Of a DNA stretch of 64,000 nucleotides, positions 8,301 to 25,450 are shown piece by piece. The notes under the pieces are model-generated. The model was not told the DNA's origin. It saw nothing but the letters and a program-made list of their open reading frames with translations, and did no database searches. The position numbers and the translations under genes are program-made. Numbering within the stretch: the stretch's first letter is position 1; each line of letters starts with the position of its first letter. Source of the stretch: a virus; the IMG/VR virus record IMGVR_UViG_3300016665_000824, positions 32,001 to 96,000 of that record. The stretch is one strand, 5' to 3'.

Positions 8301-11300
8301 TCGTCTGCACGGAGAATCCCTGCATCTTGAAGGGCGTTAGCCGTTTCAAGCAACTCGCCCAACTTCGCCTTAAATAGCGCAGGATCTCCCGCAGACTTGT
8401 TTAAAGCGTCAAGGGCTGCATTATATTTTGAAGTTGCCTGCTCGATCGCATTACCAATACGAGGAAGATCAATAGCCTGAATTTGCAGGTTTACCGACTT
8501 GTAGGATTCTTGAAGTTTTCTAAGGGCTTCAAGTTCTCGATCTCTTTCTGCGTCTAAACCTTCTACAGCTTGAACCTGATTAATGATTGCCTCGATATTG
8601 TTGTTTCTTTCGGCGATCTCCTTCTTCTTATTCTCGATCTGAATATCAAAACGCGCAGCACCATCTTTGTCGCTTAGCGCTTCCGCCTTGGACTTTTCCT
8701 GCTCTAATTTAATTAAATCCTCTTGGAGTTTCTTCTGAGCAGACAGTCCTATTCCTAGATCAACCCGCCGAGAAGCTGACTGATTTAAGACGTTTTTATT
8801 ATCTTGCAATCTTATTTGGACGGCTTTCTCTTCAAGATTTCCTGCGCGATCGCCTAGACCTAACTTGTCGGAAGCGCCAAACGTTACCGTTCTTAGCCCC
8901 TCTCTTGCCGCGTCACCTGTAAGAGCAAAACCTTCTGTAACGCGAGTACCAATATTGTCTCTCTCTTTTTTAACCTTCTCCCTCAACGCGTCTTCGGAGT
9001 TGGTTGGTTTGCTTTGTAATCCCCTCAACTCTTTGAGTTTTGCGAGCTGTTGATCATACAGCTTTAAAGTGGGGTCATCTTGGAGGATGCTCTTGTCTTG
9101 GATTGAGGCAACATATTTTTCGCGTTCTGAGGTTAGGTTTGCTAGCTCAGAAGCGGCATCCTTTCCTTGCGATTTGTTTAGGATCGCAACCCTTGCGTCA
9201 CTATCTTTGAGCGCATCGTTGAGTTTGTCTACATTGGCTGTAGCTGCTTTTGTTTCCTGATCGACGTAGCCAACCAAGGTTGTTATTGCGGCGAAAGCTG
9301 CGCTTAACAATAATGTAGGACCAATTTCTGCGGCGAGGGCGGCGAAGGATTTGCTGATACCTTTGACATTCTCGGAAATAAACGAGGTAGCGCCTACAGC
9401 ACCCTTTTTGAGGTTTGAATAAAGTCCACCGACACTAACGTTCGCGTTTTGAGTGAAATCAGCAAAGCTAGACTTAGCTCGCGAGCCAAAATCTTTGACA
9501 CCAGAAAGAGCATCTTGGAAACCTGTCTTTAACCCAGCACCTAAATTTTTGAGGCTTAAATCGGGGAGAGAAATAGACTTGACTTGATTGACAAACTTAT
9601 CTATAGCGATACGAGAATTAGCCAAAGAAGCGGGAATATTTAGCTCTCTAAAGAACTTATCGAGTCCCAGTCTCGCGTTTGCAAGAGAGGTAGGGACGTT
9701 GATCTGGGAAAATGCTTTTTCAACCCCGTTGCGGAGGTTTACCAGCGAGGCAGGAATGTTGATATTTGCAAAGGCGTTCCGAATGCTAGCTTTAGTATTC
9801 TCAATTTGCGCGGGGAGATTTGCAAAGATACCAGTTTTTTGACTCGAATCCTGACTGAACCTTCCCTTAATGTCAGATATAAAACTACCAATAGAGTCGC
9901 CCAAGGACTTCAAAGAAGTTTTTGTCTTTGTGGCGATCGCTCCAATATCTTCTGCGAACTGTTTTGTGAACGGGACGGGAATTGGATTGGCAATAATCTG
10001 ACTTCGGAGCGACTTGATTCTGTCGGTAGTCTCCTGATAACTTTTAAGAGCCGCCGCACGAGCTTCGGGGGTTAACGACAGATCTGTAGAGTCTTTTTGG
10101 CTCACGATCGCCTGCTGTTTTAGTCCAGAGACCTCTCGTTTAGCGGCGACAACCTGAGTAGGATTTAGAGTCGTTGACTGAACTGGCTTGCCCCCAAGTA
10201 TTTCTCGAACACTATCGTTTAGCTTCTTGATGCGCCCAAAGGTTTCGCCAATACTGGCTCCAGCACCGCTAATTCCCGTGTTAATTGTCTTAAATACATT
10301 GGAGATTGTGCCACCAAACAGCTTGGTAACAGCGATCGCGATTAGCAATCCGCCAACTACTTTTTGAAAAGGATTGGAGTTCTCGCCAAAAGTAAAGAAC
10401 GGCAATATCGTGTCTGCAACCACCTTAATTACTGGTGCTAATACCGACCCTACCGTATCCGCAAACTTACGAATAGCTGCGGTTACATCCTGAATGATTT
10501 TTTGTAGACCTTTGTTCTTCAGGATTAACTGATCGAAGAAGACAAAACCAACAAATGTTCCAGCACCCAACAAGGCTGTTGATACGGCAAAAGACCTTGC
10601 CGCAGCTCCTGCCGCTTTTAATGAATTAGAGAAGATGCTGTTTACTTTCTCGGTATTTGTAGCGACATCGGCAAACTTGCCCAAGCTCTTGGCTGCGTCC
10701 GCAATCAACGGGCTAAACGAGCCAAATAGTTGGGACTTACCAACAATGCCTGAGAAAGCTGTTAAGGCGATCGGCGCTGCCTTCGTAAATCCTTGCAGTG
10801 CGGTTCCTAGCGCAGGAAATGCTTGAGTAAGTCCAATCAGTTTTACCCCAAAGCCACCTAGTGTTGGCAAAGCGGCAGTTATAACTCCCGCGAATGGCGA
10901 GAACGCACCGAGAACTTTGCCCAACTCTTTTTGGACTAAGCCAGCAGCACCAGGGATCTTGTTTAGATTCTCCGCCAACAACAGGAATCCAGCAGACCCT
11001 CGACCGACAACCGAACTTAAATTAGCAAAAGTGTTGACAACCCCGTTAGTACGCTTGTCAAGCAGGAAGAGAACTTCTCCCAAACCTGGTACAAGATTAA
11101 ACATCAACGAGAAGCCTTTGTTTAATGCCCCGATCGCGCCCGAAAGAACTTTTGCGCCGACGGAGATGCCGATCCAAATCCCTCCAAGAGGACCTACAAC
11201 ACCTGCAATTTGTTCAAACACATTAATAGCTGGCTGAACAACAGCAAGAGTAAGGCTCATCGCATCGGAAAAAGCCTTTACTGCGCCAGCGAGAGACTTG

Positions 11301-13780
11301 AATAGGTATTCTGGAACCTGCCCAAAGATCTGGAAGAATGGCCCCGCGAGACTTTTTAGGGTCGCAATCACGTTCTTGAATACGTCAAACAGTATTCCTG
11401 CGAGACTCCCTACTTGAGCAGCGATCGCGTCTTTATTCTTTGAGAAATACTGGTAAAACCCGTCAAGTTCCGCTACTAAAGGTGCGAGGAATTTCTCCCC
11501 AGCGAGTCTGCCGATCTCATCAACTAGCTCTTGAATATTGCTAACAATCCCACCCACGGACTGAGCAGCTAGCTTGTTTCCAGACTTAAATGCTTCTAAT
11601 CGACCTAAAAGCTCTTTGACGAAGGTTCCTTGAGACTTCCACTTAGCCACCATCTCATTGTTGAGGTTAAGCGATTTGGCAAGAGCTGAGTTTTGGTCAA
11701 TAGTTCCCGAAGTTATACTAACAACCTCTTGACGGGCTTGATATAAAGGTATGCCAAGCGTTCCGAGTGCGGCGGCGAACGAGGTTGTAATATTAGCAGC
11801 GTCATTCAAGGACGCGCCAATGTTGCTTGCCTGCCCAGCAACGATCTGAAAAACCCCGACAAGATCTTTACTGGTTACGCCGACCAGCTCTAACGAGTCT
11901 TTACGAATTTTATCGATCGCCCCTTCAACCGCAGGGCCAACCGCCTTGATCGCTTGAGTTGGATCTGATACGCGATCGCCATTAACTACGATTCTATTGG
12001 TTGCCGCTAAGCTCGCCTGAGTAGAGAGTAGTTGCTCTTGGAGCCTGATGTTTTGCCCAATCAACAGATCGAAAGGGCCGTTTTGTACAAATCCTTGGAG
12101 TGCCTGCAATCCCAATCCCAAGAAAGCAAGTCTCTGAGATACTTCAAAGATCGCGTTGGTTGCCTTGCCAGCACCTTCGCTAATTAGATTGAATACTTCT
12201 AGTGGTTCCGTCGCCCCCGCCACTGGAGCAACCACTGCGGCGGCAATATCTACAGGTTCTTGCAGCTTCGGGGCTATCTCTTGAGTCTTTTGAAACCCCT
12301 TAACGATAACATCATCAACACTATCGATGACAGTACCGACTTCGGCAAGGATTGTTGATCTCAGTCCATCAACAAAATTCTTACCTGCGATCGCGCCAGT
12401 ATCTTTTAAAAGCGAACTAAATGTTCCGCCAAAAAACTCGTCAATCTTGGTTGCAAGTTTTTGCAGTGAGCCATCCCCGCTTCCGATAGAATCAATCGCC
12501 GCGCCCAACCCTCCGTCAATAGCATCGACAGCTTTTAGGGCTAAATTCCTGAGAGGCGCAAGGATGCTAGTATCTTCTACGCTAAACAAGCTATTGAGAG
12601 CCTGTCCAACGCCTCCCTTTTGAGTCTCTATTAAAGGGCGGAGGATGGCAAAAGCGGATCTTAAATCCTCTGGAATTGCTTTTTCTAGTCCATTAAATAA
12701 CTGTCCAGACAACGCATTTCCAAAATCTTGCAACTCATTAGAGGCAACAATCGACCCCAAATTTGCCACCCCGATCTTGTTGGCAATCAGTTTTGCTAGT
12801 GGTGGTAGTGGCAACTTATCTACAAGCTGAGGGATTCGCCCCGCTAGGCGGTTGATCAGCTCAGATACAGAGCCGCCTAACTGTTCGTCAAGAATTTTAA
12901 ATTGATCGGTCGCCTCAGATCTGCTGCCGACGATTGCCCTGCCGACCGATCCTCCTAAAGCGCTAGATAAGCGCCCTACAACTCTTTGTCCGTCCTCAAC
13001 GTTTGGCGCGATTGCGTTAACGGCAAAAGCTTTAGCAGCACCCGATACCGACCCACCAGCCAACTGCTTCGACACTTCCGACAGCAATCCAGTTTTTGCC
13101 GCAGTCCGAAATGAGTTGGCGACAATTGAGGTTAAATCCGCCCCGAAAGCTTGGTTAACAATACCTTTTAAAGCGTCGGGGAGTCCTCCCCCAACAACGC
13201 CCGAAATGAGTGAGTCGGCGATCGCGTTATCTAGCGTTCCAGTAAAAGCCTCAACTCCCACTCCAAGCTTGCGCTGAATTTCTTGATTTAGCTTTGAAGC
13301 CCTAACATTTGCTTCTAACGCTTTACCGAAACTGTTTGCAGAATCGCTAAGTATCTGCGTAATTCTCTTGCCGTTATCCGAAAATATTGCAGACTGAGCT
13401 TGCTCTGCCGACTGCTTAGATAAGAATCCTCCTCCGACATCTTTTCCTGCAGAGGTAATCCCCTTGATTACCTTTGAGAGCGGAGCTAGTTTTGAAACTG
13501 CACTGTCGGCGACATTCGAGATCTGTTCTAAAAATATTTTGCCCGACTGCGTATCTAGTACATCTCGAACCGACTGAATTGCGTCTCTCAGCCCTCCAAA
13601 CGTGCCAATCGCGGTTGCCCCTACCGTGCTGATCGTTCCGCCAAGGGCTTGTACAGATCCCTTTGTTACGTCCGCAACAACACCAACACTTTTTAGACCA
13701 GCAGCTATCTCCGAAACTTGTTTGCTTGCTTGATCTTTCGCCTGTATTAAGATCTCAACAATATTGGTTTGCGGAGCCAT
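5345..13780 (-). CDS. Giant virion protein, tape-measure-like (tail length tape measure or ejection/internal virion protein)
   Basis: Uninterrupted 2811-aa ORF; Gly/Ala/Ser-rich hydrophobic N-terminal third, long E/K/Q/A/L-rich coiled-coil centre, internal tandem repeats, position between head and tail-fiber genes. Confidence 0.6.
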   Translation of the reverse strand: MAPQTNIVEILIQAKDQASKQVSEIAAGLKSVGVVADVTKGSVQALGGTISTVGATAIGTFGGLRDAIQSVRDVLDTQSGKIFLEQISNVADSAVSKLAPLSKVIKGITSAGKDVGGGFLSKQSAEQAQSAIFSDNGKRITQILSDSANSFGKALEANVRASKLNQEIQRKLGVGVEAFTGTLDNAIADSLISGVVGGGLPDALKGIVNQAFGADLTSIVANSFRTAAKTGLLSEVSKQLAGGSVSGAAKAFAVNAIAPNVEDGQRVVGRLSSALGGSVGRAIVGSRSEATDQFKILDEQLGGSVSELINRLAGRIPQLVDKLPLPPLAKLIANKIGVANLGSIVASNELQDFGNALSGQLFNGLEKAIPEDLRSAFAILRPLIETQKGGVGQALNSLFSVEDTSILAPLRNLALKAVDAIDGGLGAAIDSIGSGDGSLQKLATKIDEFFGGTFSSLLKDTGAIAGKNFVDGLRSTILAEVGTVIDSVDDVIVKGFQKTQEIAPKLQEPVDIAAAVVAPVAGATEPLEVFNLISEGAGKATNAIFEVSQRLAFLGLGLQALQGFVQNGPFDLLIGQNIRLQEQLLSTQASLAATNRIVVNGDRVSDPTQAIKAVGPAVEGAIDKIRKDSLELVGVTSKDLVGVFQIVAGQASNIGASLNDAANITTSFAAALGTLGIPLYQARQEVVSITSGTIDQNSALAKSLNLNNEMVAKWKSQGTFVKELLGRLEAFKSGNKLAAQSVGGIVSNIQELVDEIGRLAGEKFLAPLVAELDGFYQYFSKNKDAIAAQVGSLAGILFDVFKNVIATLKSLAGPFFQIFGQVPEYLFKSLAGAVKAFSDAMSLTLAVVQPAINVFEQIAGVVGPLGGIWIGISVGAKVLSGAIGALNKGFSLMFNLVPGLGEVLFLLDKRTNGVVNTFANLSSVVGRGSAGFLLLAENLNKIPGAAGLVQKELGKVLGAFSPFAGVITAALPTLGGFGVKLIGLTQAFPALGTALQGFTKAAPIALTAFSGIVGKSQLFGSFSPLIADAAKSLGKFADVATNTEKVNSIFSNSLKAAGAAARSFAVSTALLGAGTFVGFVFFDQLILKNKGLQKIIQDVTAAIRKFADTVGSVLAPVIKVVADTILPFFTFGENSNPFQKVVGGLLIAIAVTKLFGGTISNVFKTINTGISGAGASIGETFGRIKKLNDSVREILGGKPVQSTTLNPTQVVAAKREVSGLKQQAIVSQKDSTDLSLTPEARAAALKSYQETTDRIKSLRSQIIANPIPVPFTKQFAEDIGAIATKTKTSLKSLGDSIGSFISDIKGRFSQDSSQKTGIFANLPAQIENTKASIRNAFANINIPASLVNLRNGVEKAFSQINVPTSLANARLGLDKFFRELNIPASLANSRIAIDKFVNQVKSISLPDLSLKNLGAGLKTGFQDALSGVKDFGSRAKSSFADFTQNANVSVGGLYSNLKKGAVGATSFISENVKGISKSFAALAAEIGPTLLLSAAFAAITTLVGYVDQETKAATANVDKLNDALKDSDARVAILNKSQGKDAASELANLTSEREKYVASIQDKSILQDDPTLKLYDQQLAKLKELRGLQSKPTNSEDALREKVKKERDNIGTRVTEGFALTGDAAREGLRTVTFGASDKLGLGDRAGNLEEKAVQIRLQDNKNVLNQSASRRVDLGIGLSAQKKLQEDLIKLEQEKSKAEALSDKDGAARFDIQIENKKKEIAERNNNIEAIINQVQAVEGLDAERDRELEALRKLQESYKSVNLQIQAIDLPRIGNAIEQATSKYNAALDALNKSAGDPALFKAKLGELLETANALQDAGILRADEVAGAFQKVATNVSADRDLQIKAQEAITAAYKKEADRRIAIYDAQLSQIQALLATGRISESESIALSGQLEEKKIQAQSEADQKALRARQQILETNANEQKQQIKRDRELAEAQLAAATGDPSKIRQVREAQAPVLQGKIDDTSQQIKDAEARKKALQESISTGVAGDNAAEDVKKVTDELAVLQSRLNSLQSQKGTLDSTLKLSEDTQGQLEGITKQIEDGEKALSSLKAGNAETLQRFNTVKDAPFFNSSEYTAQIKAEQDAIAKKESELRTLQTKRDQLSSIAKPDAERQNLAKNSIADANKKELDLVKATAAQKARLEEDADNKRKDAEAKIAKARSERFVKGLDAQIKETLAAEKVGETQRLAQIAQLRKSGIKLESEIKLQETAERKRSITLELQLEQQKQKAIADLEKKGVGVSKETKNANLIKVAELSKQLAEAELAAIEGLVSAVRDRLVLESQKYAVTIEQQNLKLERQKLLFTALEKGLENQSRLSESANKLAQSTVALRESEFAALNKIYDRQQAAIRAAGGQGNFADLELEEKKLILAEKLAVLKLNSLKQQQKFEAESLEREIQKRDLLLERKKVENEIAIAKKKVDIASQDAAIKAAELEVKLRPQSEEAKLKLAQAKLGQEKNFLELGGLQQEKGFIADEAKVNEIVNKNDRQALANKQQGETNTAIGDVIGATRDPALQERLQREQLARLTQNTGTAALTTTDVSNAVAAASQPVNVRGASFKNPTSALLGQVEQGGVFTAAPEPKPDNAPFATSFEELAKKYPDKGMAGSFEELNKKYPAQANSFEELNAKYGGKPTEEAKPEQAIASSFDKLTQQIDEGFSKVLVAPDLKVKDLTAGLEAEFNRVSKQISENPVTLKIDDKAFEEAQKKLDKPIALLDEGQLQRAEALAQAFGSLGGKDLVPQQQGNPTGAALGTSGNITVNAPIAINTQSNISSAAGVGNDVQKAVNDTLNNVLRRVAGVTSGVR
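5872..6000 (-). repeat. Three imperfect tandem ~42-48-bp repeats near the 3' end of the giant ORF
   Basis: Encodes SFEELAKKYP / SFEELNKKYP / SFEELNAKYG. Confidence 0.65.
9581..9820 (-). repeat. Four tandem 60-bp (20-aa) repeats inside the giant ORF
   Basis: Encodes NIPASLVNLRNGVEKAFSQI / NVPTSLANARLGLDKFFREL / NIPASLANSRIAIDKFVNQV / NLPAQIENTKASIRNAFANI. Confidence 0.7.
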
Positions 13781-13823: not shown

Positions 13824-14171
13824 TTACTTTTGCTTTAGCTTTTCTGGCTCATATCGCGACACCAAGGCGATAAGCAGATCTTGAGACGGCTTTATTTCTG
13901 AGTCAGCCCATTCTTTGAAATACTTGTGATATCTAGAACAGCTAGCCTCGGCTTTAGCGGTTTGCTCTAGGGCTAGCTGCTTCGTGGGGTCGCTATCAGG
14001 GAGGGTCTTTAACCCCTCCTCTTTTCCTAGCAGACTATACGAAGTCGAGCAATACCTGTAATCTTCGGCGATCGCTGTCGCTGCCGACTTGGACTGAAAA
14101 GACCTTACAGCGCCAACTGAAAGCAACGCTAGCACGACTACCGCCCCTAATGTGATTGGATTAAGCTTCAT
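13824..14171 (-). CDS. Small protein with N-terminal signal/anchor sequence
   Basis: Likely start at MKLNPITLGAVVVLALLSVGAVRS (ATG 14171) rather than track start 14288, which overlaps upstream gene; two Cys. Confidence 0.4.
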   Translation of the reverse strand: MKLNPITLGAVVVLALLSVGAVRSFQSKSAATAIAEDYRYCSTSYSLLGKEEGLKTLPDSDPTKQLALEQTAKAEASCSRYHKYFKEWADSEIKPSQDLLIALVSRYEPEKLKQK

Positions 14172-14220
14172 TGATTTTTGTGATTTCTTCACGAAGATTA
14201 TAGCGCGATCGCCTCGCAAT

Positions 14221-16428
14221 TTATCCCTTACCGTTACTGGGTTTTGAGGTTGGCTTATAGACATCATAGAGAGAGCCAATCTTCCCATTCTTCTTAGAGG
14301 CGTATAAAATCATAGGATCTTGACCCTCCATAGGGGCGAAGCCAGCCTTTTCGTAAATACTCTTACGCTTACTGCCAGCCCCATCTTTGTCATAAGCCCC
14401 AGCCGTAAGAATAGAGTTGTCGGGCATAGCCTCAATATGCTTGGCAAACGAAGCCTTTGTCATGCGAATAATTTGTTTTGCTCCAGAAGCCCCAAGGTTG
14501 GCGGACTCCTCCTTGTTATTGGATTCGTTTATGGCGAAAGAAACCTCGTAGACACTTCCTCCAGAAGCTTCTTTTTTGTACACAGTCGTAAAGGTGTACA
14601 AGGCTGGTCCAACAGAAGCTACAGTATAAACCCCACCATTCTTTCTATCCCTGTAAGTGAAGCTGTTCGATTCTTTGTCTACGTCAATAAGATCCCGACC
14701 CTTAATAGACTGAGTTTTTCTTGCCAAGGCGAGCTTGGTCATTCCGATAAGACCTTTTGCTTTGTCTTTAAGGGCTGGGCTTAAATCAGATCTATCCAAA
14801 GCCCGATCCGCCACTTTCCCCAAGGCTAAACTCTGCTTGTAGGTCATAATCAGTGCAACATCTGAAATCTTGTAATCTTTTGTCGCTTGAATATTGCCAA
14901 TACCGACGACTCCAGCTACCACTGAACCTACGCTACCTGCGACGATCGCTGCCTTGCGAGCGCCTTTGTTAGAAAGTAGTCCGATAGCCTTGTCTACTGG
15001 TGTCTCCTTTTTTTGTAGGGGCGGCTGAGGTATAGAGAATTCCGTTTTTGGTTGTTGTGACTCGCTTGGATTACCCCCTTTTGTTGACTTGCCTCGGTTT
15101 GCAGCGATCGCCGCCGCACCACCAACTAAGGCAGCAGCACCTAAACCAGTACCAACATTTCGGGCTAAATTATTCTCGCTTTTTTTCTCGCCGATCTTTT
15201 GACAGGCGTTTCCACGCTGGACATAGCCTTCCTTGCATTTGAGCGTTCTACCCTTGTCGTAGCGCAAAGATACCGACATACGCCCCTCAAGATAAGACGA
15301 ATCATTCTGTAGATCGGCATCAGTCCGCCTTGTAGTTGCACTTTGATAGATGTTGCTAAATAGGTAAAGAACTTCGATATCCTCGTCATCCTCAACCGAG
15401 TCTCCCCTCTTCTCATTTATCTGGGATATCTTCTCGTTTGTTTTAGCCTCTACGTTTTCTCTAAAGTCCTTGAGTCCACCCCTCTTTGTTGCGAGGGTGA
15501 GAGCAGTGCCAAGAAGAATGGTGTCTCGCTCAGCTCTTCTTAGAACCTTCTGAAAAGGAGATAAGGTAGATTCATTCTTACCACCCGAAATCGACTTGGA
15601 CACATATTCTCCCGCAATGCGTTGAATTTCAGGATCTTTAGACCACTCGGAAGCTACGGATGAGCCATATTTCAAGGCTGCGCTACGAGCTTTTGGATTG
15701 GTCAGCACCTCTTTTGCGATAACCATAGAGGCTTTTTTCTTTGCTTCAACTAAGTTTGTTTCGTTACTAAATTCAGGAGCGACAAAAGTTCCGACAGCGC
15801 TGGCTACTTCTGGCTTTTCCGCAAGAATACTCAAAATTGCGGTAGCTTTATCTCTGTAAGCAGGATTGTTTAAATCCTTGATGCGCCTTTTAATCAATAC
15901 TTGAGATAAATTGTCTCCCTCACTTTTGATTTCACCTTTCTTCTCTTTTGACAAAAGGTTTGCCACTACAGAGACAGTCTTGTTCACCGCCACCGAAGCC
16001 GCCTTTTTCGTTGCGCCCAATATAATCTGATTCTTTTTCTGAGAGATCGCAGCCCCAGTTACCGCAACAACGGTACTGGCTCCAGCCGCCAAATACCTCT
16101 TCGCCAGAGGAAGTCCTTTCTCCCCTTTTTTGGAGGCAGTAGAACTCGAAAGAAGGGCAACAGGGGCGGGATCTACGGCTCTGTTTTCTTGCGGAGATCT
16201 TCTCGATGCGATCGCCGCCACACCGCCGACTAAAGCCGCAGCCCCTAGCCCTGCGCTAATATTTCGAGCTAAATCACCCCCAGCCTTCTTCTCGCCAATC
16301 TTCTGGCAAGCAGCCCCGCGCTGTACATAACCTTGCTTACACTTAATCTTCTTCCCCGCATCTTGACGTAGAGCGACAGACACCTGCCCCTCAAGATAAG
16401 CTAAGTCACTGGCTAAATCTCTCGTCAT
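14221..16428 (-). CDS. Cys-motif/hydrophobic-helix protein with duplicated anchor module and GNAT-like C-terminus
   Basis: 735 aa; two copies of CK[QE]GYVQRGxAC followed by GLGAAALVGG-type hydrophobic segment; C-terminal GASGAK...IYEKAGF resembles GNAT acetyltransferase motifs. Confidence 0.6.
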   Translation of the reverse strand: MTRDLASDLAYLEGQVSVALRQDAGKKIKCKQGYVQRGAACQKIGEKKAGGDLARNISAGLGAAALVGGVAAIASRRSPQENRAVDPAPVALLSSSTASKKGEKGLPLAKRYLAAGASTVVAVTGAAISQKKNQIILGATKKAASVAVNKTVSVVANLLSKEKKGEIKSEGDNLSQVLIKRRIKDLNNPAYRDKATAILSILAEKPEVASAVGTFVAPEFSNETNLVEAKKKASMVIAKEVLTNPKARSAALKYGSSVASEWSKDPEIQRIAGEYVSKSISGGKNESTLSPFQKVLRRAERDTILLGTALTLATKRGGLKDFRENVEAKTNEKISQINEKRGDSVEDDEDIEVLYLFSNIYQSATTRRTDADLQNDSSYLEGRMSVSLRYDKGRTLKCKEGYVQRGNACQKIGEKKSENNLARNVGTGLGAAALVGGAAAIAANRGKSTKGGNPSESQQPKTEFSIPQPPLQKKETPVDKAIGLLSNKGARKAAIVAGSVGSVVAGVVGIGNIQATKDYKISDVALIMTYKQSLALGKVADRALDRSDLSPALKDKAKGLIGMTKLALARKTQSIKGRDLIDVDKESNSFTYRDRKNGGVYTVASVGPALYTFTTVYKKEASGGSVYEVSFAINESNNKEESANLGASGAKQIIRMTKASFAKHIEAMPDNSILTAGAYDKDGAGSKRKSIYEKAGFAPMEGQDPMILYASKKNGKIGSLYDVYKPTSKPSNGKG

Positions 16429-16763
16429 TTCTTGCTCCGCTTTTTAATCATCTTGCTAATAGCTTCAGCTCCATTAGCCACTTTAGACTCAACCTTGCCC
16501 GTAGCTCGACCCGTGTTAAAGATTGCCTTACCAGTATTAAAATCCTCTTTCAATCCTGTTTTACCTTTATCGGCAAGTTTGGCGATCGCCACAGCAGTCA
16601 GTCCCGCGATCACGCCACGACCAACTGCGCCAGCAACACTCTTAATCGCTGTTTTAAGTTTGCCTTTACCACAAGTAGCGCCTTGAGGGATGCAGTAGGT
16701 TTTACCATCTTCTCCTTGGCAGGGTTTGCCGCGATCGCACGTTGTGTCTAGTCTAATCTTCAT
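16425..16763 (-). CDS. Small Cys-knot/hydrophobic-helix protein
   Basis: 112 aa; CDRGKPCQGEDGKTYCIPQGATCG then Gly/Ala-rich hydrophobic helix; 4-nt overlap with neighbours. Confidence 0.55.
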   Translation of the reverse strand: MKIRLDTTCDRGKPCQGEDGKTYCIPQGATCGKGKLKTAIKSVAGAVGRGVIAGLTAVAIAKLADKGKTGLKEDFNTGKAIFNTGRATGKVESKVANGAEAISKMIKKRSKK

Positions 16764-18468
16764 ACTTATTTTTCACCGCTTTTTCCACCGCAAGTCTGGC
16801 TGCAATACCAATCGCGATCTTAACTATGGGATGAGAACCTTCTGCGTAAGAAGGAGAGGCTTTTTGTAACGCTGCAAATGAAGCTTTCGTGCCTACATAT
16901 TGCGTTGCCGCGTCAGAAAACATCAATAGCGCAGTTTTTTCTGTCTGACCTAACGAGGAGTCGGACAACGTTCTCTCTGTCGCATCACGAGCAACTTTAC
17001 CTCCAAAGGCTCCAACCAAACTAGAACCAATCTCATATCCAAGCATCTTGAGTTTGTCTTTTTCTTGCCTCCCAATCGATTTTAAGGTGACAAAATCGCC
17101 CACTTGCTGGACAAAGTTCTTTTTCGCTTGCGGAGTTTGAATCATGGCTTGGAGGCTTCTGCCTGCGCTTGAATTGCGGAGTTTTCCAATAGAGCGGGTT
17201 AAGCGATCTCCTAGTCCGCCCCTTCCTTTTACTGTGGATAGAATAGCCTCCCCGACCTGCATCCCGTCCCTAGCCTTCTGCCTTAAGTCGTGTTGCTTCC
17301 CCTTAGGGGCATTAGCGATTAGGGCTAGCGTAGTCGCCGAGGCTGCTGCTACCCCTATTGTTGCCAAGGTTCTTGAGGAAATAAAAGGTTTTCTCTTTTC
17401 TGACCCGCAGGTTGCGTTTTTTGGGATACAGTAAGTCTGACCGTCCTCGCCCTTGCACGGCTTTCCGCGATCGCAGGTAGAATCTATTCTATTTTGAATA
17501 GATCTTGTTTTTTTGTAGATGTATCCGCTAGTCCTCCCCGTCTTAGATCTCAAAAAAGAATCTGTTTCTGTACTGATTTTGCGTGCAAACCCCTGATAAT
17601 CCTGAAAACGATCGGTCACAGTTCTGGGTTGCTTGTCCTGCCATTTTTCTGTTAATTGCCTGTTTAGATTGGCGTGAACGTCAGCCAACTCTTTAGCTAG
17701 TGAGCTACTAGGAGAAAATGCCCCCTCTCTTTTAGCCTGTAATACAGAGGTGGTTTCCGCTCCAGTCGCACGAATTTCTTTGATGTTACTAAAAAACGCT
17801 CCTACTTTTAAGTCGGCGGGACTAAAGGCTGACGTATCTCCAACCCCAGCAATATCTGGGTGATTGTGAGTCATCAGTACTGTGTTTTTTGCGGCTTTTT
17901 GATTATACGCATCGGTTATTCCAAGAGAGACCGAGCCTATCTGCCCTTTTCTGATCAGTGAAGGCTTGCCATCCACGTCAAAAGCAAAAAGAGTCTCGAA
18001 ATCATTATGCTGGATCTTTCTTTCTGCCGCGTAAACACTAATTGCAAGTTCTTTGGGGAGGTGGCTATATGCAGGAGCATCTCTTGCGGGAATGCCATTC
18101 TTGGCTACGTCTTCTCGTTCTTTCGCAAACTCCTTATAGGTTTCAACATCATCAAGCTTCTCTCTTATAACCTTATTGGCAATCATGGCTCCCACCCCCA
18201 GCGCTAAAAACTTAGCCGCCGCCTGAGGATCTTTAGAAGCTAATGCGGCTCCTGCCGCTAGTACAGTCAGTTTTGCAAGAGTTCCAGTTCCATCGCCCTT
18301 ACTAGCTGTGGATAGGGAACCAGTTCTAGATATCGGATGACAGGCGGAGCCTCTTTGGACATAACCTTGCCGACAATTGATTTTTTTGTACTCATCCCGC
18401 CTCTCCACATATCGCGATCGCGACAGTAGATACCCCATTTCGTACTCGTTCTTGTTATCTAGTCTCAC
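16753..18468 (-). CDS. Cys-motif/hydrophobic-helix protein with JAB/MPN-like (JAMM) signature
   Basis: 571 aa; N-terminal CRQGYVQRGSAC plus hydrophobic segment; central THNHP...SPAD (aa 200-219) resembles RadC/JAB HxH...SxxD; C-terminal CDRGKPCKGEDGQTYCIPKNATCG plus hydrophobic segment. Confidence 0.55.
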   Translation of the reverse strand: MRLDNKNEYEMGYLLSRSRYVERRDEYKKINCRQGYVQRGSACHPISRTGSLSTASKGDGTGTLAKLTVLAAGAALASKDPQAAAKFLALGVGAMIANKVIREKLDDVETYKEFAKEREDVAKNGIPARDAPAYSHLPKELAISVYAAERKIQHNDFETLFAFDVDGKPSLIRKGQIGSVSLGITDAYNQKAAKNTVLMTHNHPDIAGVGDTSAFSPADLKVGAFFSNIKEIRATGAETTSVLQAKREGAFSPSSSLAKELADVHANLNRQLTEKWQDKQPRTVTDRFQDYQGFARKISTETDSFLRSKTGRTSGYIYKKTRSIQNRIDSTCDRGKPCKGEDGQTYCIPKNATCGSEKRKPFISSRTLATIGVAAASATTLALIANAPKGKQHDLRQKARDGMQVGEAILSTVKGRGGLGDRLTRSIGKLRNSSAGRSLQAMIQTPQAKKNFVQQVGDFVTLKSIGRQEKDKLKMLGYEIGSSLVGAFGGKVARDATERTLSDSSLGQTEKTALLMFSDAATQYVGTKASFAALQKASPSYAEGSHPIVKIAIGIAARLAVEKAVKNKYED

Positions 18469-21083
18469 TGGCTTTGCTTCCTCGCTTTACGGCGTTGAGT
18501 TAATGTTGCATTGAGTTTTTTGGCGATCGCGTCAGCAGCATTTACCGACAGGTAATCCACTGCGCTGCCGTTAGTTCCTGAGAAGCTATCGGGGTTTTTG
18601 CCCTTGAATGGAGTTCGACTCCAGAGATCGCCGTCCGACCACAGATCGGTCTTTGGAGTTTTTAGCAGATCTGTATCTACTTTTTTCTTATCTACCTTCT
18701 CTCCCCCAAAACCCAGCTCAGGAGTTCCCAAAGTAACAAGGTGAATTTGTTTAGCAATATAAGTCCCAGCAACATTTCCTTGCGAACCTGTTTTTTGCAT
18801 TGACTCCAAGATGTCCAAAGCCCTTTTTGCTGTTTCTCCACCTTGCTTTAGCCCAATAACAGAAATAGCTGGGTATTCAGTTGAGCTTCCCTCGTATGAG
18901 CTGTTTCCGATAGCGTAAAGTTCCGCAGCCAACTTTACAGCTTCAGGGTCTCGTCCCGCTTTGAGGGTCTTACTCATCACGGCTTCGTAGCTTCTTGCCA
19001 TAGTGTCAATAACACCCATAACCCTGCCCCTAGACTGAGGCGGGAGGGTTCGATCAAAAGAAACCACGTCGCTTTGATCGTAGAAGTCTTTCTCTGCTTG
19101 AGACTGAAGCTTTGATCCGTTACTTTTAATTGATTTGCCCAGAACATCGCTAGGAGTTTCTCCATCTCCTATTGCGATAATGACGCTGGGATTTATTGGG
19201 GTAGGCAAAGTCGTTCGTCCACTTGCTACAATCTCTTGAGCCTCAAGAGCAGACTTCGCTATATTGTTGTTGTATTTAACCCTCGCAGCCACAGCAGCAG
19301 TCACCGTTACTTGACCAAGTACGGCTACAGTATTAATCGCTGCTGCTGTGGGATTGTCTTGATATTTATCCTTGATCGCAGAAACCAGATTCCACGTCTT
19401 TCCTAGCGTTGGGTTTACCGCAGTGATCGCCGCCGCTATTTCTTTTGCCCCCTTGTCGCTAGACTTGCTTCCCGCAACAGAATTAGAGAAAAATCCAAAC
19501 GTCTCGCGGATTTTATCTCTGACCGTGCTATCGGTTAAGTAGTCCTCAATCTCATGCCCCTTGACCGAGCTGACAAACTGCGAAAACCTCTTAGGCAGGA
19601 TTGAGAAAGGATCGTTTTTGGAGGTAATAGTGCGGTTGTTAATGTTCGCCCAGTTCTTGTCGTCTTGAGTTGTGCCACCCGTCAAACCGAAGGATGCACC
19701 GCCAAGTCTGGCGATATTGAGGCGCTTCAGAACTTCTCCACCATCAAGCCCCCTAGCAGGCTTGATCCGACTCAAAATTTCGGCAGCTTCATCAACAACG
19801 TTGCCCCCAGAACCGTGACTAACTACGTTCAAAGGCTTGTCACGATACTTAGAGCCATAAGCATACAATTTAGAAGCCAGATCCACCGCAGCTTCGTTTC
19901 TGCCACCGACAATATTGCTTAGATATTTGCCAAAACTTTCTTTAGCTACATACCCCAGATACAAGGGATTGTAGTTCCCGTTTTTATCCTTTGGGAGAAT
20001 ATCGGTTGGAGGAACATTAAACTCCGAATTGTTGAAGGGGATGACCTGCTGGGTCTTGTTAAACCACTGTTCCCGTTTTGAAGTGTCAAGCGGAGTTTTT
20101 AAATATTCAGCGAGCTTATCACCAGAAGAGCCAAGGTTGGAAAATCCTCCTACAGCAAAAGTTAGTTGAGGTTTGGAGGTTGGCTCGACAGGAGTAGTTT
20201 GTGCTCTTTGGTACGCCATTAGCGCCGATTCAGGCAAGCCTTCTTTGTAGCGATCGCGAGCGGTCATCATTACCGATGAGGGAATGCCCAGCAGTACGCT
20301 TGCCGCTAATATGCCTGCCGCAGGGCGATTGTCTCCAAAAAACTTGCTAATCTTTTCGATATCTTTCCATGCGCCAGCAACGGGTTGGGGTAGCAAACTC
20401 TTAAGAGCTTTCTTGCTAGACTCTGCGCGATTCAAGCCTTCACGAACAATCTTCTGGCGATCGGGATTGGCTTTTTGCAGGCGAATTGATTCTCGCAATT
20501 GAGCCTGACTCATATACGAGTAGCGATACACGCCTCGTTTGCGAGCTTCTTCCTTTAATTCCCGAATATTCTTGTTATCAAGATCGTCCTCAACTGGGGC
20601 AACGCCAACAAATTTCGCTTTTTGAACTTGGTTTACCGCATCATTCAGATCGGAAATCTCTTGTCTATTTAAAGCTTCAGGAACGTCAATACGGCAGGTG
20701 TCCGTCTTTGCAATACAAGCGCCTTTGCAGGATAGTCCAACCTTACAGTTCTTGGGCTTAGAAATTTTATCGGTACGTTGACCGATATTGTTTGCATAAG
20801 CAAGTAAGTACTGATCTGCGTCAGTATCTACTGCATCAGTGCGACCATCCTGTACCTGCTTATACTCAATGCGATCTCCTAATTCCAGCCGAATCAGCTT
20901 TTGATCCTTGTCATCATCACGAAACAGACAAGTGATAAGCCCGTCATTACCGATATTGATATTAAGGATCTGATCGATACTCCCGTAGGCGCGAGAAATA
21001 ATGCGAGTTAATAGCCTCGCAATCGTTCTTCTTGCGGCGAGAGGATCTGTGGTTTGAATTGGTGGTGGTGCGATCGCGTACAT
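18465..21083 (-). CDS. Large virion/effector-like protein with possible alpha/beta-hydrolase-like region
   Basis: 872 aa; CKVGLSCKGACIAKTDTC motif; VVSHGSGG (aa 421-428), NDPF (aa 490-493), KGHE (aa 508-511) in the order expected of a Ser-Asp-His hydrolase, not canonical GxSxG. Confidence 0.5.
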   Translation of the reverse strand: MYAIAPPPIQTTDPLAARRTIARLLTRIISRAYGSIDQILNINIGNDGLITCLFRDDDKDQKLIRLELGDRIEYKQVQDGRTDAVDTDADQYLLAYANNIGQRTDKISKPKNCKVGLSCKGACIAKTDTCRIDVPEALNRQEISDLNDAVNQVQKAKFVGVAPVEDDLDNKNIRELKEEARKRGVYRYSYMSQAQLRESIRLQKANPDRQKIVREGLNRAESSKKALKSLLPQPVAGAWKDIEKISKFFGDNRPAAGILAASVLLGIPSSVMMTARDRYKEGLPESALMAYQRAQTTPVEPTSKPQLTFAVGGFSNLGSSGDKLAEYLKTPLDTSKREQWFNKTQQVIPFNNSEFNVPPTDILPKDKNGNYNPLYLGYVAKESFGKYLSNIVGGRNEAAVDLASKLYAYGSKYRDKPLNVVSHGSGGNVVDEAAEILSRIKPARGLDGGEVLKRLNIARLGGASFGLTGGTTQDDKNWANINNRTITSKNDPFSILPKRFSQFVSSVKGHEIEDYLTDSTVRDKIRETFGFFSNSVAGSKSSDKGAKEIAAAITAVNPTLGKTWNLVSAIKDKYQDNPTAAAINTVAVLGQVTVTAAVAARVKYNNNIAKSALEAQEIVASGRTTLPTPINPSVIIAIGDGETPSDVLGKSIKSNGSKLQSQAEKDFYDQSDVVSFDRTLPPQSRGRVMGVIDTMARSYEAVMSKTLKAGRDPEAVKLAAELYAIGNSSYEGSSTEYPAISVIGLKQGGETAKRALDILESMQKTGSQGNVAGTYIAKQIHLVTLGTPELGFGGEKVDKKKVDTDLLKTPKTDLWSDGDLWSRTPFKGKNPDSFSGTNGSAVDYLSVNAADAIAKKLNATLTQRRKARKQSQ

Positions 21084-21085
21084 GA

Positions 21086-22492
21086 CTATTTTTTAGCTTG
21101 CTTCTGGTTTTCTTCTTCCGCCTTGTTTATGGCGTGGGCTGCGAGAGCTAGAGATCCAGCAGTTGCCGCAACGTTCGCTCCGATCGCGCCAGCAACAGAT
21201 GCTCCGCGACCATGACCACGCGATCGTAAAGCTCTGTAAGTGCCGCTACCGATCGGCCCAGCCAGCGCCTGTACCGCCCCCTTTCCAAAAGCTTTGGCAG
21301 TCTCCCCAGCACAATTCTTTTCTTGAGGAATACAGATCTTTCCGCAAGGCTTAGTACCTGAACCGCACTTTGCGTCTTCACGAAGCTGCTCGACGAATGA
21401 GTCGATGCGCTCATCTAAGGATTCGTATCGACGACTTGTTTTATTCCACACTCTATTTGTAGTCATATTCGCTCTTCTAATTCGTTTTGGCATCTCCCTC
21501 CGAGTTGTTTTAACCTCAGATGCTTTTACGTCTACCGTATTATTCTTGTCAACAAAAGTCTGCATAAAACTTCTAGCGAAATTGTCTACGGCGTTAAGAG
21601 TTGATCGGGTGGTAGATCCCGCCTTTTTTGCCGCCTCGTTTAGGTCGATAGTTTTGTCGGCAAGATTCTTCCTCGCGACGCGATCGCGTTCTAGCCTTTC
21701 TTTTGTTTTTCGATACAACTTACCCGCCGCCGCACCTGCGGAACCAGCAGCTCTTGTTAATAGTGGCTTCTGAGGTTCGGCGATCGCACTACCACTACTC
21801 TTGCCCGATTCACTCGCAGCAATAGTTAATCCACCAGTAGATACCTTGGAAGCAGGAGGGTTGTATGGCAGTCGAGTTGGAGGTGGGGGTGTAGGAGTTT
21901 CAGGTTTATTGACGGGGACTAGTGCTCCACCGATTTCTGGCTTGGGCTTGGGTGATGGAAGGCGATCGGGCGGGGCTAGCCTCCTGCTTTCTATCTCGCC
22001 TTGCCGAGCTGCTTCTCGCTCAAGATCTTTCTTAGCCTTATATCGAAAATACTCCTCTTCTGCCGCAGCTTCCTCTGCTCTCCACCGCGCCCTCCGAGTT
22101 TCGCTATCCTTTTCGCCAGCCTTGTTTGCGCCCTTCTCGATAATGGGGCGAAGACCTACGGTGATGGCTTTATTCGCAATTACACCTGCGCCGAGTGATG
22201 CGGCAGTTCCACCGACCTTGATCGCCGCTTTCTTAGCAAACTCACCAACCTTATTGGGAGGTGACTGAGGAAGTATAGAAGCAGGCTCCGTCACAGGGAT
22301 AGGCTTCTGTTCTTCTGGCTTCTTCCTTAGCGCGATCGCTGCTGCCCCCAACCCACCCAAGGCAAGTGCAGCGCCAACACCCGCAGCCCCTTTCTTTGCT
22401 GCACTGGCATTGCGGAAGTATGAATAAGCCTTACGTCCATTTTGCGCTGGGACTTTAACTTCTACCTGTGCGTCCTGTCTTTCAGTACTCAT
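21086..22492 (-). CDS. Low-complexity basic/Pro-rich protein with Cys-knot motif and Gly/Ala-rich hydrophobic segments
   Basis: 468 aa; CGSGTKPCGKICIPQEKNCAG near C-terminus; several GAAGVGAALALGG-type segments. Confidence 0.5.
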   Translation of the reverse strand: MSTERQDAQVEVKVPAQNGRKAYSYFRNASAAKKGAAGVGAALALGGLGAAAIALRKKPEEQKPIPVTEPASILPQSPPNKVGEFAKKAAIKVGGTAASLGAGVIANKAITVGLRPIIEKGANKAGEKDSETRRARWRAEEAAAEEEYFRYKAKKDLEREAARQGEIESRRLAPPDRLPSPKPKPEIGGALVPVNKPETPTPPPPTRLPYNPPASKVSTGGLTIAASESGKSSGSAIAEPQKPLLTRAAGSAGAAAGKLYRKTKERLERDRVARKNLADKTIDLNEAAKKAGSTTRSTLNAVDNFARSFMQTFVDKNNTVDVKASEVKTTRREMPKRIRRANMTTNRVWNKTSRRYESLDERIDSFVEQLREDAKCGSGTKPCGKICIPQEKNCAGETAKAFGKGAVQALAGPIGSGTYRALRSRGHGRGASVAGAIGANVAATAGSLALAAHAINKAEEENQKQAKK

Positions 22493-22875
22493 CTGTTTGG
22501 CATCCTCGTTAAAATAATTTCCCAGCTAAAACTTTTGTTCTCAATAGTCCCCATTACCTCATTACACTTGATCGAACCATCGACAATGTAATACTTGCCC
22601 TTGCCCGTAAGCTGAGCCTCGGTGTATGCCGCAGATATACCGCTCACCTGATAGTCGTCAATACCAACCTTGATATTAGTGCTTTCAAACAAGGCGACAG
22701 TACGAGGGTTAACCCGTAGAATCGTGGGGTGAGGCAATATCTCTAGCCTTGTTTCTCCCGACGTAGTGCGAGTCACTACTGTTAATGGCAGCACATTAGG
22801 CGCACCGATCGCATCTCCTGCTAGGCGATCGCGCAGTGGTTGAAGTTTGGCAATAATCTTTGAGGCTAGTGACAT
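22489..22875 (-). CDS. Hypothetical virion protein (head-tail joining region)
   Basis: 128-aa ORF, 4-nt overlap with downstream gene. Confidence 0.4.
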   Translation of the reverse strand: MSLASKIIAKLQPLRDRLAGDAIGAPNVLPLTVVTRTTSGETRLEILPHPTILRVNPRTVALFESTNIKVGIDDYQVSGISAAYTEAQLTGKGKYYIVDGSIKCNEVMGTIENKSFSWEIILTRMPNR

Positions 22876-24528: not shown

Positions 24529-25440
24529 TTACAATCCGTGCAACCAGAGTACGGAGTAGGGACGCTTGATAATCAAGCCGCCGTACTTCATACGGGCGGT
24601 GCGCTGCATCCCACGAGGAAGCTCAATCCACTTCTTGAAGGAGAAAGGCTCGGTAATGCGGAACTTGATTTTGTTCGGATCGCGCTTGTAGTAACAAGCA
24701 ACGTTAGAACCGCCATCACCAACACCTTCGAGAGGGAGTAAGGGGAAGTAATCCTTAATGTAAGTTGCCTTACTCAAGTAGTAATCAAGAACAGAATCAC
24801 TGTTGAAGTCACTGAGACGACGGAAGCTGATTTCATCGTGAGTTGCCTGAGCAAACAAGATCGTGTCAGGGGTCTCAATATTGCGGGTCAAACGACGCAT
24901 GGCGTTGCCAGTGTTGTTCAATACCGCAAGAAGCTGAGCTACCGTAGCATTGCTGTCAAAAGCGTATGCAGAGTAGGACTTCAAAGTATCAGGATGGTTG
25001 AAGAAACCGCGCAATTGACCGTCACCCAAGAACACCATCTTGTCGAGGTATTGTTGACCTGCTTCAAGCACGATCTGGACTTTTTCCGCCTCAATGCCAG
25101 TACCAAACTTTTGAGAAAGTTCGATTTCTTTGTCATTAAGGGTATAAGCACCAATATGCTCAGAAACTCTTTGGCGGAATTCTCTCGACACGATCTCGAC
25201 GTTAGGAACGTGAGTGGTGTAGTCGCGAGCAGCTTCCCACCGACCGATACCAGTTACCTTGCGATAGCCAGTTTCTTCGAGTTCAGGTTTGTTCCAATCT
25301 TCGCGAGGAAGGAGAGTGCCGTTAGCCCAGTAAAGCTGTTCGTACTCTTCTTTTTCGAGAGACTGTTCTAGTTCGACGAGCTGCTCTTTGAAGTAGCCCA
25401 CCGACCAATCATCATTCTTAATTTCAGTAGCTGTGGTCAT
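24529..25440 (-). CDS. Putative major capsid protein
   Basis: Start reassigned to ATG 25440 (MTTATEIKND), preceded by AGGAGG; track start 25728 runs through upstream gene; ~303 aa, downstream of protease/scaffold-like gene. Confidence 0.45.
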   Translation of the reverse strand: MTTATEIKNDDWSVGYFKEQLVELEQSLEKEEYEQLYWANGTLLPREDWNKPELEETGYRKVTGIGRWEAARDYTTHVPNVEIVSREFRQRVSEHIGAYTLNDKEIELSQKFGTGIEAEKVQIVLEAGQQYLDKMVFLGDGQLRGFFNHPDTLKSYSAYAFDSNATVAQLLAVLNNTGNAMRRLTRNIETPDTILFAQATHDEISFRRLSDFNSDSVLDYYLSKATYIKDYFPLLPLEGVGDGGSNVACYYKRDPNKIKFRITEPFSFKKWIELPRGMQRTARMKYGGLIIKRPYSVLWLHGL

Positions 25441-25450
25441 TGGACTCCTC

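Follow-up and report, generated by a model that had tools for sequence, protein, structure and literature searches.

JAB enzymes hold a central place in ubiquitin-like signalling and, among bacteria, in the CBASS and Bil immune systems. In phage lambda, a JAB domain is joined to an NlpC/P60 cell-wall peptidase in the tail assembly protein K. RadC domains are among the components of polyvalent proteins of phages and plasmids (PMC5512222). For the RadC clade, the nearest in sequence to the domain described here, it has been proposed that the substrates are nucleic acids and that the domain is not a peptidase (PMC5512222, PMC3482391). Divergent JAB clades also serve as delivered effectors (PMC3482391).

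The window analysed here is a stretch of 64,000 nucleotides of viral DNA (IMG/VR record IMGVR_UViG_3300016665_000824, positions 32,001 to 96,000). One of its ORFs, in the structural module of this cyanophage, encodes a protein of 571 residues; its GTG start and the stop of the ORF upstream of it overlap by 4 nt. A first-pass annotation had pointed to a JAB-like motif at residues 198–220 of this protein (LMTHNHPDIAGVGDTSAFSPADL, nt 17809-17877, LMTHNHP...SPAD), to a possible upstream Glu in FETLFAFDVDG, and to flanking Cys modules and hydrophobic anchors. The ORF and the motif, whose core is HNHPDIAGVGDTSAFSPAD (residues 201–219), were confirmed, as was conservation of the motif across 119 sequences (see below). 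The segment FETLFAFDVDG begins at residue 157, so that its Glu is Glu158, upstream of HNHP. The flanks are also as described (C32/C43 in the Cys2 module, C332-C354 in the Cys4 module, with the two hydrophobic regions). The annotation had further remarked that the spacing between the second His and the Ser is longer than canonical, and indeed it is 12 residues, compared with 7 in canonical JAMM proteins. Across 131 domain copies of the family, however, this spacing ranges from about 6 (the mode, 50 copies) to 22; since it is so variable, the long spacing points to a loop insertion rather than to a broken motif. The features are listed in Table 1.

Table 1. Features of the 571-residue protein and of the gene block around it; positions are those of the window.
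Feature	Residues	Position (nt)	Strand	Remarks
Gene block, tightly packed and partly overlapping		13824..22875	minus	ORFs of 128, 468, 872, 571, 112, 735 and 154 aa; between head-completion genes and a 2811-aa tape-measure-like gene
Whole ORF	571 aa	16753..18468	minus	Order: Cys2 module, hydrophobic segment(s), JAB-like domain, Cys4 module, hydrophobic segment, all-helical C-terminal region
N-terminal Cys2 module, KKINCRQGYVQRGSACHPI	28-46	18331..18387	minus	Paralogous to two modules of ORF 14221-16428
Ala/Gly-rich hydrophobic segment 1, probably two helices	62-103	18160..18285	minus	Hydropathy; the full-length model (low confidence) has helices at 60-77 and 81-103
JAB/MPN-like catalytic core	139-245	17734..18054	minus	
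Predicted general-base Glu of the JAMM motif	158	17995..17997	minus	At least 90% conserved in 119 sequences; begins β strand FETLFAFD in the model
H201-N-H203-P ... S216-P-A-D219	201-219	17812..17868	minus	Predicted Zn ligands H201, H203 and D219; predicted oxyanion Ser216; 12-residue loop between
Family-specific helical hairpin and terminal β strand	256-322	17503..17703	minus	Helices 122-144 and 150-176, strand 182-188 (model residues)
Cys4 module, CDRGKPCKGEDGQTYCIPKNATC	329-356	17401..17484	minus	Paralogous to the neighbouring 112-aa ORF; like modules in CL131 gp044, gp045 and gp048
Ala/Thr-rich hydrophobic segment 2	364-388	17305..17379	minus	Hydropathy
All-helical C-terminal region, conserved	389-571	16756..17304	minus	Close homologues share 76-81% identity; helical also in the full-length model (low confidence)

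A profile search returned 116 relatives, and conservation was assessed over a set of 119 sequences. Members of the family are only about 20–30% identical to the query. Nevertheless, H201, N202, H203, D219 and R233 occur without exception in the 119 sequences, while E149, E158, G167, G175, V180, T200, P204 and S216 are conserved in at least 90%. The JAMM motif residues (E158, H201, H203, S216 and D219) are thus all present and all invariant or nearly so, and at the sequence level the motif is far beyond chance. The domain occurs in solo versions of about 190 residues, which start with Gly-rich tails, and in multi-domain relatives with conserved Gly-rich linkers (GGxGSGxxGH) between the modules and up to four tandem JAB copies per polypeptide. 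Close homologues are rare, with only four among 5.8 billion clustered proteins; IMG/VR and GTDB genomes scanned with patterns from the alignments of close homologues gave no relatives, and a tblastn search of 50,697 phage records with the ORF gave no match. A six-frame HMM scan of the window detected this JAB-like domain alone, which rules out another JAB copy there, as well as a fusion with MuF. Public names for the family members are ‘hypothetical’ or ‘minor capsid protein’. The domain defines a large, uncurated, phage-specific JAB clade that is absent from Pfam, NCBIfam, PHROGs and PADLOC.

The first-pass annotation had proposed an HMM search against JAB/MPN and Prok-JAB profiles, and the outcome of this is divided: the protein alone matches no curated HMM, whereas the profile of its family matches RadC. 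Searches of Pfam with the ORF and with the isolated domain returned no family at E≤1 (PF01398, PF14464 and PF04002 included), HMM scans against PHROGs, NCBIfam and PADLOC returned none, and a sequence and profile search of PDB chains gave noise only (E>0.1). Aligned by hhalign with a 26-sequence RadC alignment, the family profile scored a probability of 88.5% (E 2.7e-6) with HNHP and SxxD in register, compared with 0.1–0.2% (E 0.33–0.43) for two unrelated controls; against YicR the E-value was 1.8e-5. Two multi-copy relatives (P0008 and P0035) reach summed Pfam RadC scores of 28.8 and 23.5 bits, respectively, the gathering cut-off being 22.1.

Structural modelling, which had also been proposed, gave a confident AF2 model of the domain (pLDDT 88.8, pTM 0.85) with the MPN α/β fold. 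E158 begins a β strand, the HxH ends a strand, and S216 and D219 stand at the start of the next helix, an arrangement that matches canonical JAMM enzymes; the geometry of the zinc site was read from these secondary-structure positions in the model only. The best Foldseek matches in the PDB are CSN5, RadC and AMSH, every E-value being above 0.01, and structural matches in BFVD include phage ‘minor capsid proteins’, ‘metalloprotease’, ‘deubiquitination hydrolase’ and ‘RadC’. An HNH endonuclease, considered because of the letters HNH, was rejected on the MPN fold and topology; there is no ββα-metal finger. Both a profile alignment to RadC-like JAB domains and a predicted fold with the JAMM site were therefore found, and these support the assignment of a real but very divergent JAB/MPN domain, closest in sequence to the RadC-like JAB domains.

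Outside the catalytic core, the hairpin region (residues 256–322) is the fastest-evolving part of the protein, with 27–47% identity among the four close homologues compared with 63–90% elsewhere. Full-length structural matches of the hairpin-bearing domain are phage ‘minor capsid’ and uncharacterised proteins. For the C-terminal region, HMM scans of the ORF gave no family match. The full-length AF2 model, made from a 4-sequence alignment, has a pLDDT of 39 and was used for secondary structure only. Cys modules followed by hydrophobic segments are found in five of the seven ORFs of the block, and those of the 571-residue protein are paralogous to modules in neighbouring ORFs.

The gene precedes the tape-measure-like ORF (5345-13780), and its 112-aa neighbour weakly resembles a tape-measure protein (PF06791, E 0.0047). 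The same gene block, including a syntenic copy of the 571-aa ORF, is present in a metagenome locus (L001). The adjacent 872-aa ORF has a homologue in the virion protein gp048 of the Aphanizomenon phage vB_AphaS-CL131. In that phage, the counterparts of the block (gp044-gp048) encode virion proteins (PMC6293099), and gp044, the homologue of the 571-residue protein, was detected in CsCl-purified virions by LC-MS/MS with 46% coverage and 9 peptides (PMC6293099 Table S5). Phage_Mu_F domains are present in 20 of the 119 relatives, Phage_min_cap2 in 4 and a portal domain in 1; another four carry domains of the ADP-ribosyltransferase type (ADPrib_exo_Tox in 2, DRAT in 1 and ART in 1). The recurrence of such fusions with MuF, minor capsid and ADP-ribosyltransferase domains points to a logic of packaging and injection (PMC5576092, PMC5512222). 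The earlier suggestion that the protein is virion-associated thus gains weight from gp044 and from the fused relatives. By analogy with gp044, which is about 30% identical and has no hydrophobic segments, the 571-residue protein is probably a virion-carried enzyme.

On balance, we favour the view that residues ~139–322 form a catalytically intact JAB/MPN(+) zinc hydrolase, which is packaged in the virion and acts early in infection. As in solved JAMM enzymes, H201, H203 and D219 would hold Zn2+, with E158 activating the zinc-bound water and S216 stabilising the tetrahedral intermediate. The protein would be made with the structural genes and packaged, as shown for the CL131 homologue. Because the Ala/Gly-rich hydrophobic segments and the Cys modules resemble tape-measure and ejection proteins, it may exit with the DNA and lodge at the envelope or a membrane of the host, after which the JAB domain would work as a hydrolase early in infection. 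The rapidly diverging helical hairpin is likely to be the element that recognises the substrate. Our preferred chemistry is a tentative choice that takes somewhat over a third of the total probability: the enzyme would cut a protein of the host or of the phage at a peptide or isopeptide bond. In a narrower form of this proposal, which we hold to be rather improbable, the protein is an isopeptidase for counter-defence that arrives together with the genome, stays at the membrane and removes ubiquitin-like conjugates attached by host systems. Such conjugates might be carried by phage tail or virion proteins or by host sensors, with Bil-type Ubl conjugation and the Cap2 of type II CBASS as examples, and the fast evolution of the hairpin could then track the host Ubl or the target. 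A literature search on virion JAMM/JAB proteins or phage anti-Ubl JAB enzymes found nothing specific.

Alternatively, the JAB fold may act on nucleic acids or nucleotides in the manner proposed for RadC; delivered with the genome, it would, at an early stage of infection, process the ends of DNA or RNA, or nucleotide signals. RadC models are the only curated families to give any sequence signal, and HNHP is typical of RadC; the RadC of polyvalent proteins and the toxin JAB clades have been proposed to be nucleases or to process nucleotides (PMC5512222, PMC3482391), and the cargo domains of MuF proteins are often nucleases (PMC5576092). With this in its favour, we regard the proposal as unlikely but worth serious attention.

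It is also conceivable, if quite unlikely, that, as the tail penetrates, the domain cuts peptidoglycan at its peptide or isopeptide-like cross-links, as do the lytic domains of tape-measure and tail-tip proteins. The position of the gene directly upstream of the tape-measure gene would fit, as would its weakly tape-measure-like 112-aa paralogue and the hydrophobic segments, which are typical of tail-lumen and ejection proteins; in addition, lambda K pairs its JAB with NlpC/P60, and the distant BFVD matches include NlpC/P60 and minor tail proteins. Among the relatives, however, the domain is recurrently fused to the head-internal MuF or minor capsid proteins and stands beside effectors that act in the cytoplasm (ADP-ribosyltransferases), and HMM scans of the ORF gave no match to any lysin family. 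Moreover, we know of no JAB enzyme that hydrolyses peptidoglycan.

A role in assembly, in which the JAB domain would cleave the virion proteins or polyproteins of the phage itself during maturation (for instance at Gly-rich linkers) rather than host proteins, is very unlikely. JAB enzymes do cut after Gly-Gly tails, which recalls the linkers and Gly-rich starts of the relatives, and autoprocessing peptidases are a recurrent feature of polyvalent proteins (PMC5512222). Against this, the cluster in the window has no Gly-rich linkers, a processing enzyme would not need up to four JAB copies per polypeptide, and a head maturation protease is already encoded at 26337-27827. An RGG at residues 416–418, considered as a ubiquitin-like self-cleavage site, was discarded as it is not conserved in P0004. 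Finally, a chance or relic motif in a purely structural domain, to which the want of a direct curated HMM match and the non-canonical spacing might point, is extremely improbable given invariant or nearly invariant catalytic residues at such low identity, together with fold and profile evidence that is independent of the motif.

The role of the RadC-like branch is a long-standing question, for which the clade offers a short soluble domain in its solo form. The fusions with MuF and ADP-ribosyltransferases, along with one proteomic detection in virions, single out the members of the clade as enzymes brought into cells by phages. The assignment also annotates part of what is ‘dark’ in the structural module of the CL131/PaV-LD cyanophages, whose hosts are bloom-forming filamentous cyanobacteria. 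If the domain does strip ubiquitin-like conjugates, then its solo, MuF-fused and polyvalent versions would represent a widespread class of phage deconjugases.

Among the known systems, the RadC-like JAB proteins (PF04002; E. coli YicR, Chlorobium RadC 2qlc) are the best and only relatives by sequence profile, and share the MPN fold and HNHP followed by S-x-x-D. The family differs from them in having a variable loop of 6–22 residues in place of the fixed SG..P.PS of RadC, and an ‘EIRA’ strand where RadC has ‘LDH’; the T of RadC is also replaced. It adds the invariant R233, the conserved E149 and the C-terminal helical hairpin, whereas the HhH/UPF0758 N-domain (PF20582) is absent from the 571-residue protein and from all 119 relatives. 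The protein is itself below the family threshold of RadC proper (PF04002 / NF000642), with no match.

Compared with the JAMM/MPN+ isopeptidases (AfJAMM, PfJAMM1, Rpn11, CSN5, AMSH and BRCC36) and the defence enzymes CBASS Cap3 and Bil BilC, the identity is 11–13%, with no match to Pfam or PADLOC models and no ubiquitin-like partner found nearby. The analogy drawn earlier with lambda K holds at the level of a JAB-superfamily domain in the morphogenesis module of a siphovirus, but goes no further: the 571-residue protein has neither a Prok-JAB (PF14464) match nor NlpC/P60, its gene is upstream of the tape-measure gene whereas K lies downstream among the tail-tip genes, and K-like proteins are only distant structural matches (E about 0.04 in BFVD). 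Orthology with K was rejected on these grounds.

With regard to the JAB clades that serve as delivered effectors (PMC3482391), neither the query nor the 119 relatives match their Pfam families, and the context of delivery is the MuF of the phage head rather than RHS or T6SS. The NCLDV proteins ASFV F317L and FV3 3R are among the structural matches in BFVD (E about 6e-5). Among MuF (SPP1 gp7-family) head proteins with effector domains and polyvalent proteins, the same JAB-like domain recurs as C-terminal or repeated cargo, in MuF, minor capsid protein 2 and ART-containing proteins; the 571-residue protein has no MuF domain, its JAB-like domain instead being set between Cys modules and hydrophobic segments, near the tape-measure gene. 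CL131 gp044 (ATW59312.1, ‘hypothetical protein’), which was reached only by searching with a family member, aligns with the core at 30% identity (BLASTP E 5e-7). It shares the genomic position and a Cys4 module followed by the JAB-like domain but, at 226 residues, is without the hydrophobic segments and the C-terminal helical region of the 571-residue protein.

The target ORF lies in a tailed-phage genome, which also encodes a cement-like protein, a DUF4054 head protein, a portal, a DnaG primase and a DnaB helicase; the nearest capsid proteins to its own are those of Aphanizomenon phage vB_AphaS-CL131 and Planktothrix phage PaV-LD (~33% identity). It belongs to a block of seven closely spaced and partly overlapping ORFs on the minus strand (13824-22875), with the head-completion genes on one side and the tape-measure gene on the other; the start of the target ORF overlaps the end of the 872-aa ORF upstream by 4 nt. 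The same block is found in a related metagenomic contig, L001, where an inserted IS605 OrfB/TnpB (Cas12f-like) gene (4363-5589), absent from the window, separates the DUF4054 gene from the counterpart of ORF 22489-22875. In its longest form (399 aa, TTG start) the major capsid ORF runs into the cement-like ORF upstream of it (25451-26323). Its homologue in L001 is called with 301 aa, so translation probably begins at an internal site. The 2811-aa protein has many hydrophobic segments and zero cysteines, in contrast with the Cys-module proteins encoded just upstream, and its match to the PHROG tape-measure family is weak (E 3e-4).

Coordinates of the main features in the window
Feature	Position	Strand	Remarks
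DUF2213-type head maturation protease	26337-27827		
PF09950 major capsid protein	24529-25728	minus	
Cys-module ORF	21086-22492	minus	
Cys-module ORF	18465-21083	minus	872 aa
Target ORF (Cys-module ORF)	16753-18468	minus	571 aa, GTG start
Cys-module ORF	16425-16763	minus	
Cys-module ORF	14221-16428	minus	
Tape-measure-like protein	5345-13780	minus	2811 aa

The JAB-like motif claimed for this ORF by the first-pass annotation is present: nt 17812-17868 are the codons for HNHP...SPAD (aa 201-219), contained in LMTHNHPDIAGVGDTSAFSPADL (aa 198-220). The possible upstream Glu in FETLFAFDVDG, which begins at aa 157, is E158. The Cys modules and hydrophobic flanks are likewise as described, with a Cys2 motif (C32, C43) and, after it, a hydrophobic stretch rich in Ala/Gly (~aa 62-103), then a Cys4 motif (C332, C338, C347, C354) with a second such stretch at ~aa 364-388. 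Paralogues of these modules are found in the neighbouring ORFs of 112 aa and 735 aa. Across five adjacent ORFs (14221-22492), short Cys modules of two kinds, Cys4 (C-x2-G-x2-C-(G)-x2-C-I-x5-6-C) and Cys2 (C[KR]xGYxQRGxAC), occur eight times, each with an Ala/Gly-rich hydrophobic segment 20-30 aa downstream. The Cys4 module is also seen in several metagenomic JAB-family proteins and has no counterpart in curated libraries; it may be a zinc knuckle, a disulfide knot or a packaging signal.

For the target ORF, neither Pfam, with E up to 1 allowed, nor PHROGs gives a match; the isolated JAB domain has none in Pfam, PHROGs, NCBIfam or PADLOC either. Only 4 close homologues were found among 5.8 billion protein clusters, and no close relatives in IMG/VR and GTDB genomes. 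A profile of residues 100-334, built from the four close homologues, retrieved 116 proteins at E<=1e-3 from a set of 1.84 billion representatives; the matches cover query residues ~145-300. All 119 aligned sequences share H201, N202, H203, D219 and R233 without exception, and at least 90% of them keep E149, E158, G167, G175, V180, T200, P204 and S216, while overall identity is only ~20-30%; this pattern places the motif under strong selection. The His-to-Ser spacing, noted earlier as longer than canonical, is 12 residues; across the family it ranges from ~6 to 22, with ~6 the commonest value (50 of 131 domain copies), so the long spacing here represents an insertion in a loop of naturally variable length. 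In a wider search, family members were labelled only 'hypothetical' or 'SPP1 gp7 family', with no precomputed Pfam domain over the JAB region.

The AlphaFold2 model of aa 135-325 is of high confidence (69-sequence alignment; pLDDT 88.8, pTM 0.85) and runs from a helix through a strand from E158, a strand, helices, a strand ending in H201-x-H203, a loop and a helix opening with S216..D219 to two strands, which is the canonical JAMM layout of the AfJAMM and AMSH structures; the full-length model is poor. In BFVD the top-ranking matches (E down to 8e-12) span the entire model with its hairpin and belong to gut-phage proteins labelled 'uncharacterized' or 'minor capsid'; NCLDV JAB-like proteins follow, and after them phage 'metalloprotease', 'deubiquitination hydrolase' and 'RadC' entries. 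By hhalign, the family alignment matches E. coli YicR (78%, E 1.8e-5) and a 26-sequence RadC alignment (88.5%, E 2.7e-6); in the latter comparison the HNHP and SxxD motifs line up. Two unrelated E. coli control proteins gave 0.1-0.2% (E 0.33-0.43). Pfam RadC is the sole curated family with any signal among the relatives, its summed score reaching 28.8 and 23.5 bits in the multi-copy proteins P0008 and P0035 (gathering cut-off 22.1). Since these four independent lines place the domain in the JAB superfamily, we conclude that it is a divergent member, predicted to be catalytically intact and nearest in sequence to the RadC clade. The JAB-like identity proposed earlier is thus upheld by the modelled fold and by profile homology to RadC, and not by a curated HMM match of the protein itself. 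Membership of the RadC family proper was rejected: there is no HhH domain, EIRA replaces LDH, E149 and R233 are additional invariant residues, and the helical hairpin and terminal strand are family-specific.

The CL131 homologue, gp044 (226 aa), has a Cys4 module followed by the JAB-like domain and occupies the same genomic position. It was detected in CsCl-purified virions by LC-MS/MS (46% coverage, 9 peptides; PMC6293099 Table S5). The suggested virion association therefore holds for this homologue, and packaging of the window protein is inferred from context. The 872-aa ORF is homologous to gp048, another abundant CL131 virion protein (E 4e-46), and both gp045 and gp048 carry the Cys4 module of gp044. 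It contains two alpha/beta-hydrolase-like modules, compared with three or more in gp048 (1811 aa); the window copies have SHGSGG and GLKQGG instead of the nucleophile-elbow-like GHSAGG of gp048, and so may be inactive. A weak Rho_N/HeH-like motif, IRELKEEARKRGVYRYSYMSQAQLRESIRL, is seen at aa 167-196.

Phage_Mu_F (SPP1 gp7/MuF head protein) is present in 20 of the 119 family proteins and Phage_min_cap2 in 4; four others carry ADP-ribosyltransferase-type domains (ADPrib_exo_Tox 2, DRAT 1, ART 1), and a portal and an XkdF-type protease domain occur in single proteins. The JAB domain and an 872-like module share one chain in metagenomic P0005 and P0040, and P0007 adds ART. Several family proteins have 2-4 JAB copies in tandem, with Gly-rich linkers (GGxGSGxxGH) between them; among these proteins, the polyvalent P0008, P0010, P0035 and P0093 have up to four, with conserved linkers KGGxGSGxxGHxGRPGxxGGS. 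Solo members have similar Gly-rich N-terminal tails, three beginning with IQLFGGRG, which resembles the Firmicute L27/Prp-type N-terminal cleavage motif. One solo member (P0131, 190 aa, on many contigs) lies in a ~10 kb integrase-bearing element flanked by host genes (contigs L004-L006, ~2200-12400), with an HTH regulator, ParB_N/DUF4417, a CdiA_C-like gene, a probable terminase, an SPP1-type portal and a 526-aa protein. A minimal element for capsid packaging or toxin delivery seems a better description of it than a full prophage. Head packaging followed by injection has been proposed for MuF-fused C-terminal domains and for polyvalent proteins, and RadC domains in polyvalent proteins have been noted (PMC5576092, PMC5512222); as far as their text goes, these papers do not describe the present clade.

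By analogy with solved JAMM enzymes, H201, H203 and D219 would bind Zn2+, E158 would act as general base and S216 would stabilise the intermediate. Tape-measure and ejection proteins have hydrophobic segments similar to those of the target protein, and the 112-aa paralogue has a weak TMP_2 match; upon ejection, these segments may take the packaged protein to the host envelope or membrane, where the JAB domain would act early in infection. The hairpin (aa 246-322) is the fastest-evolving part of the protein (27-47% identity among the four close homologues, against 63-90% in all other regions), which suggests a specificity element under diversifying pressure. The fold, the conserved catalytic motif, the virion-linked family membership and the genomic position are established. 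Among the candidate chemistries, we rank protein (iso)peptide cleavage first. A RadC-like nucleic-acid or nucleotide role comes second and cleavage of peptidoglycan cross-links third; self-processing of virion proteins ranks last.

Neither the JAB superfamily nor the concept of phage effectors with JAB/RadC domains is new. What is new is the delineation of this clade outside curated libraries, its experimental link to virions, and the domain order seen in this phage group, in which Cys modules and hydrophobic anchors enclose the JAB domain. In structure the nearest known kinds are classical JAMM and Cap3/BilC enzymes, in sequence RadC-like JABs, and in deployment MuF-cargo and polyvalent-protein effectors. 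The lambda K analogy drawn earlier survives as kinship at the superfamily level and no closer; the direct homologue is the unannotated gp044 of CL131 (ATW59312.1).
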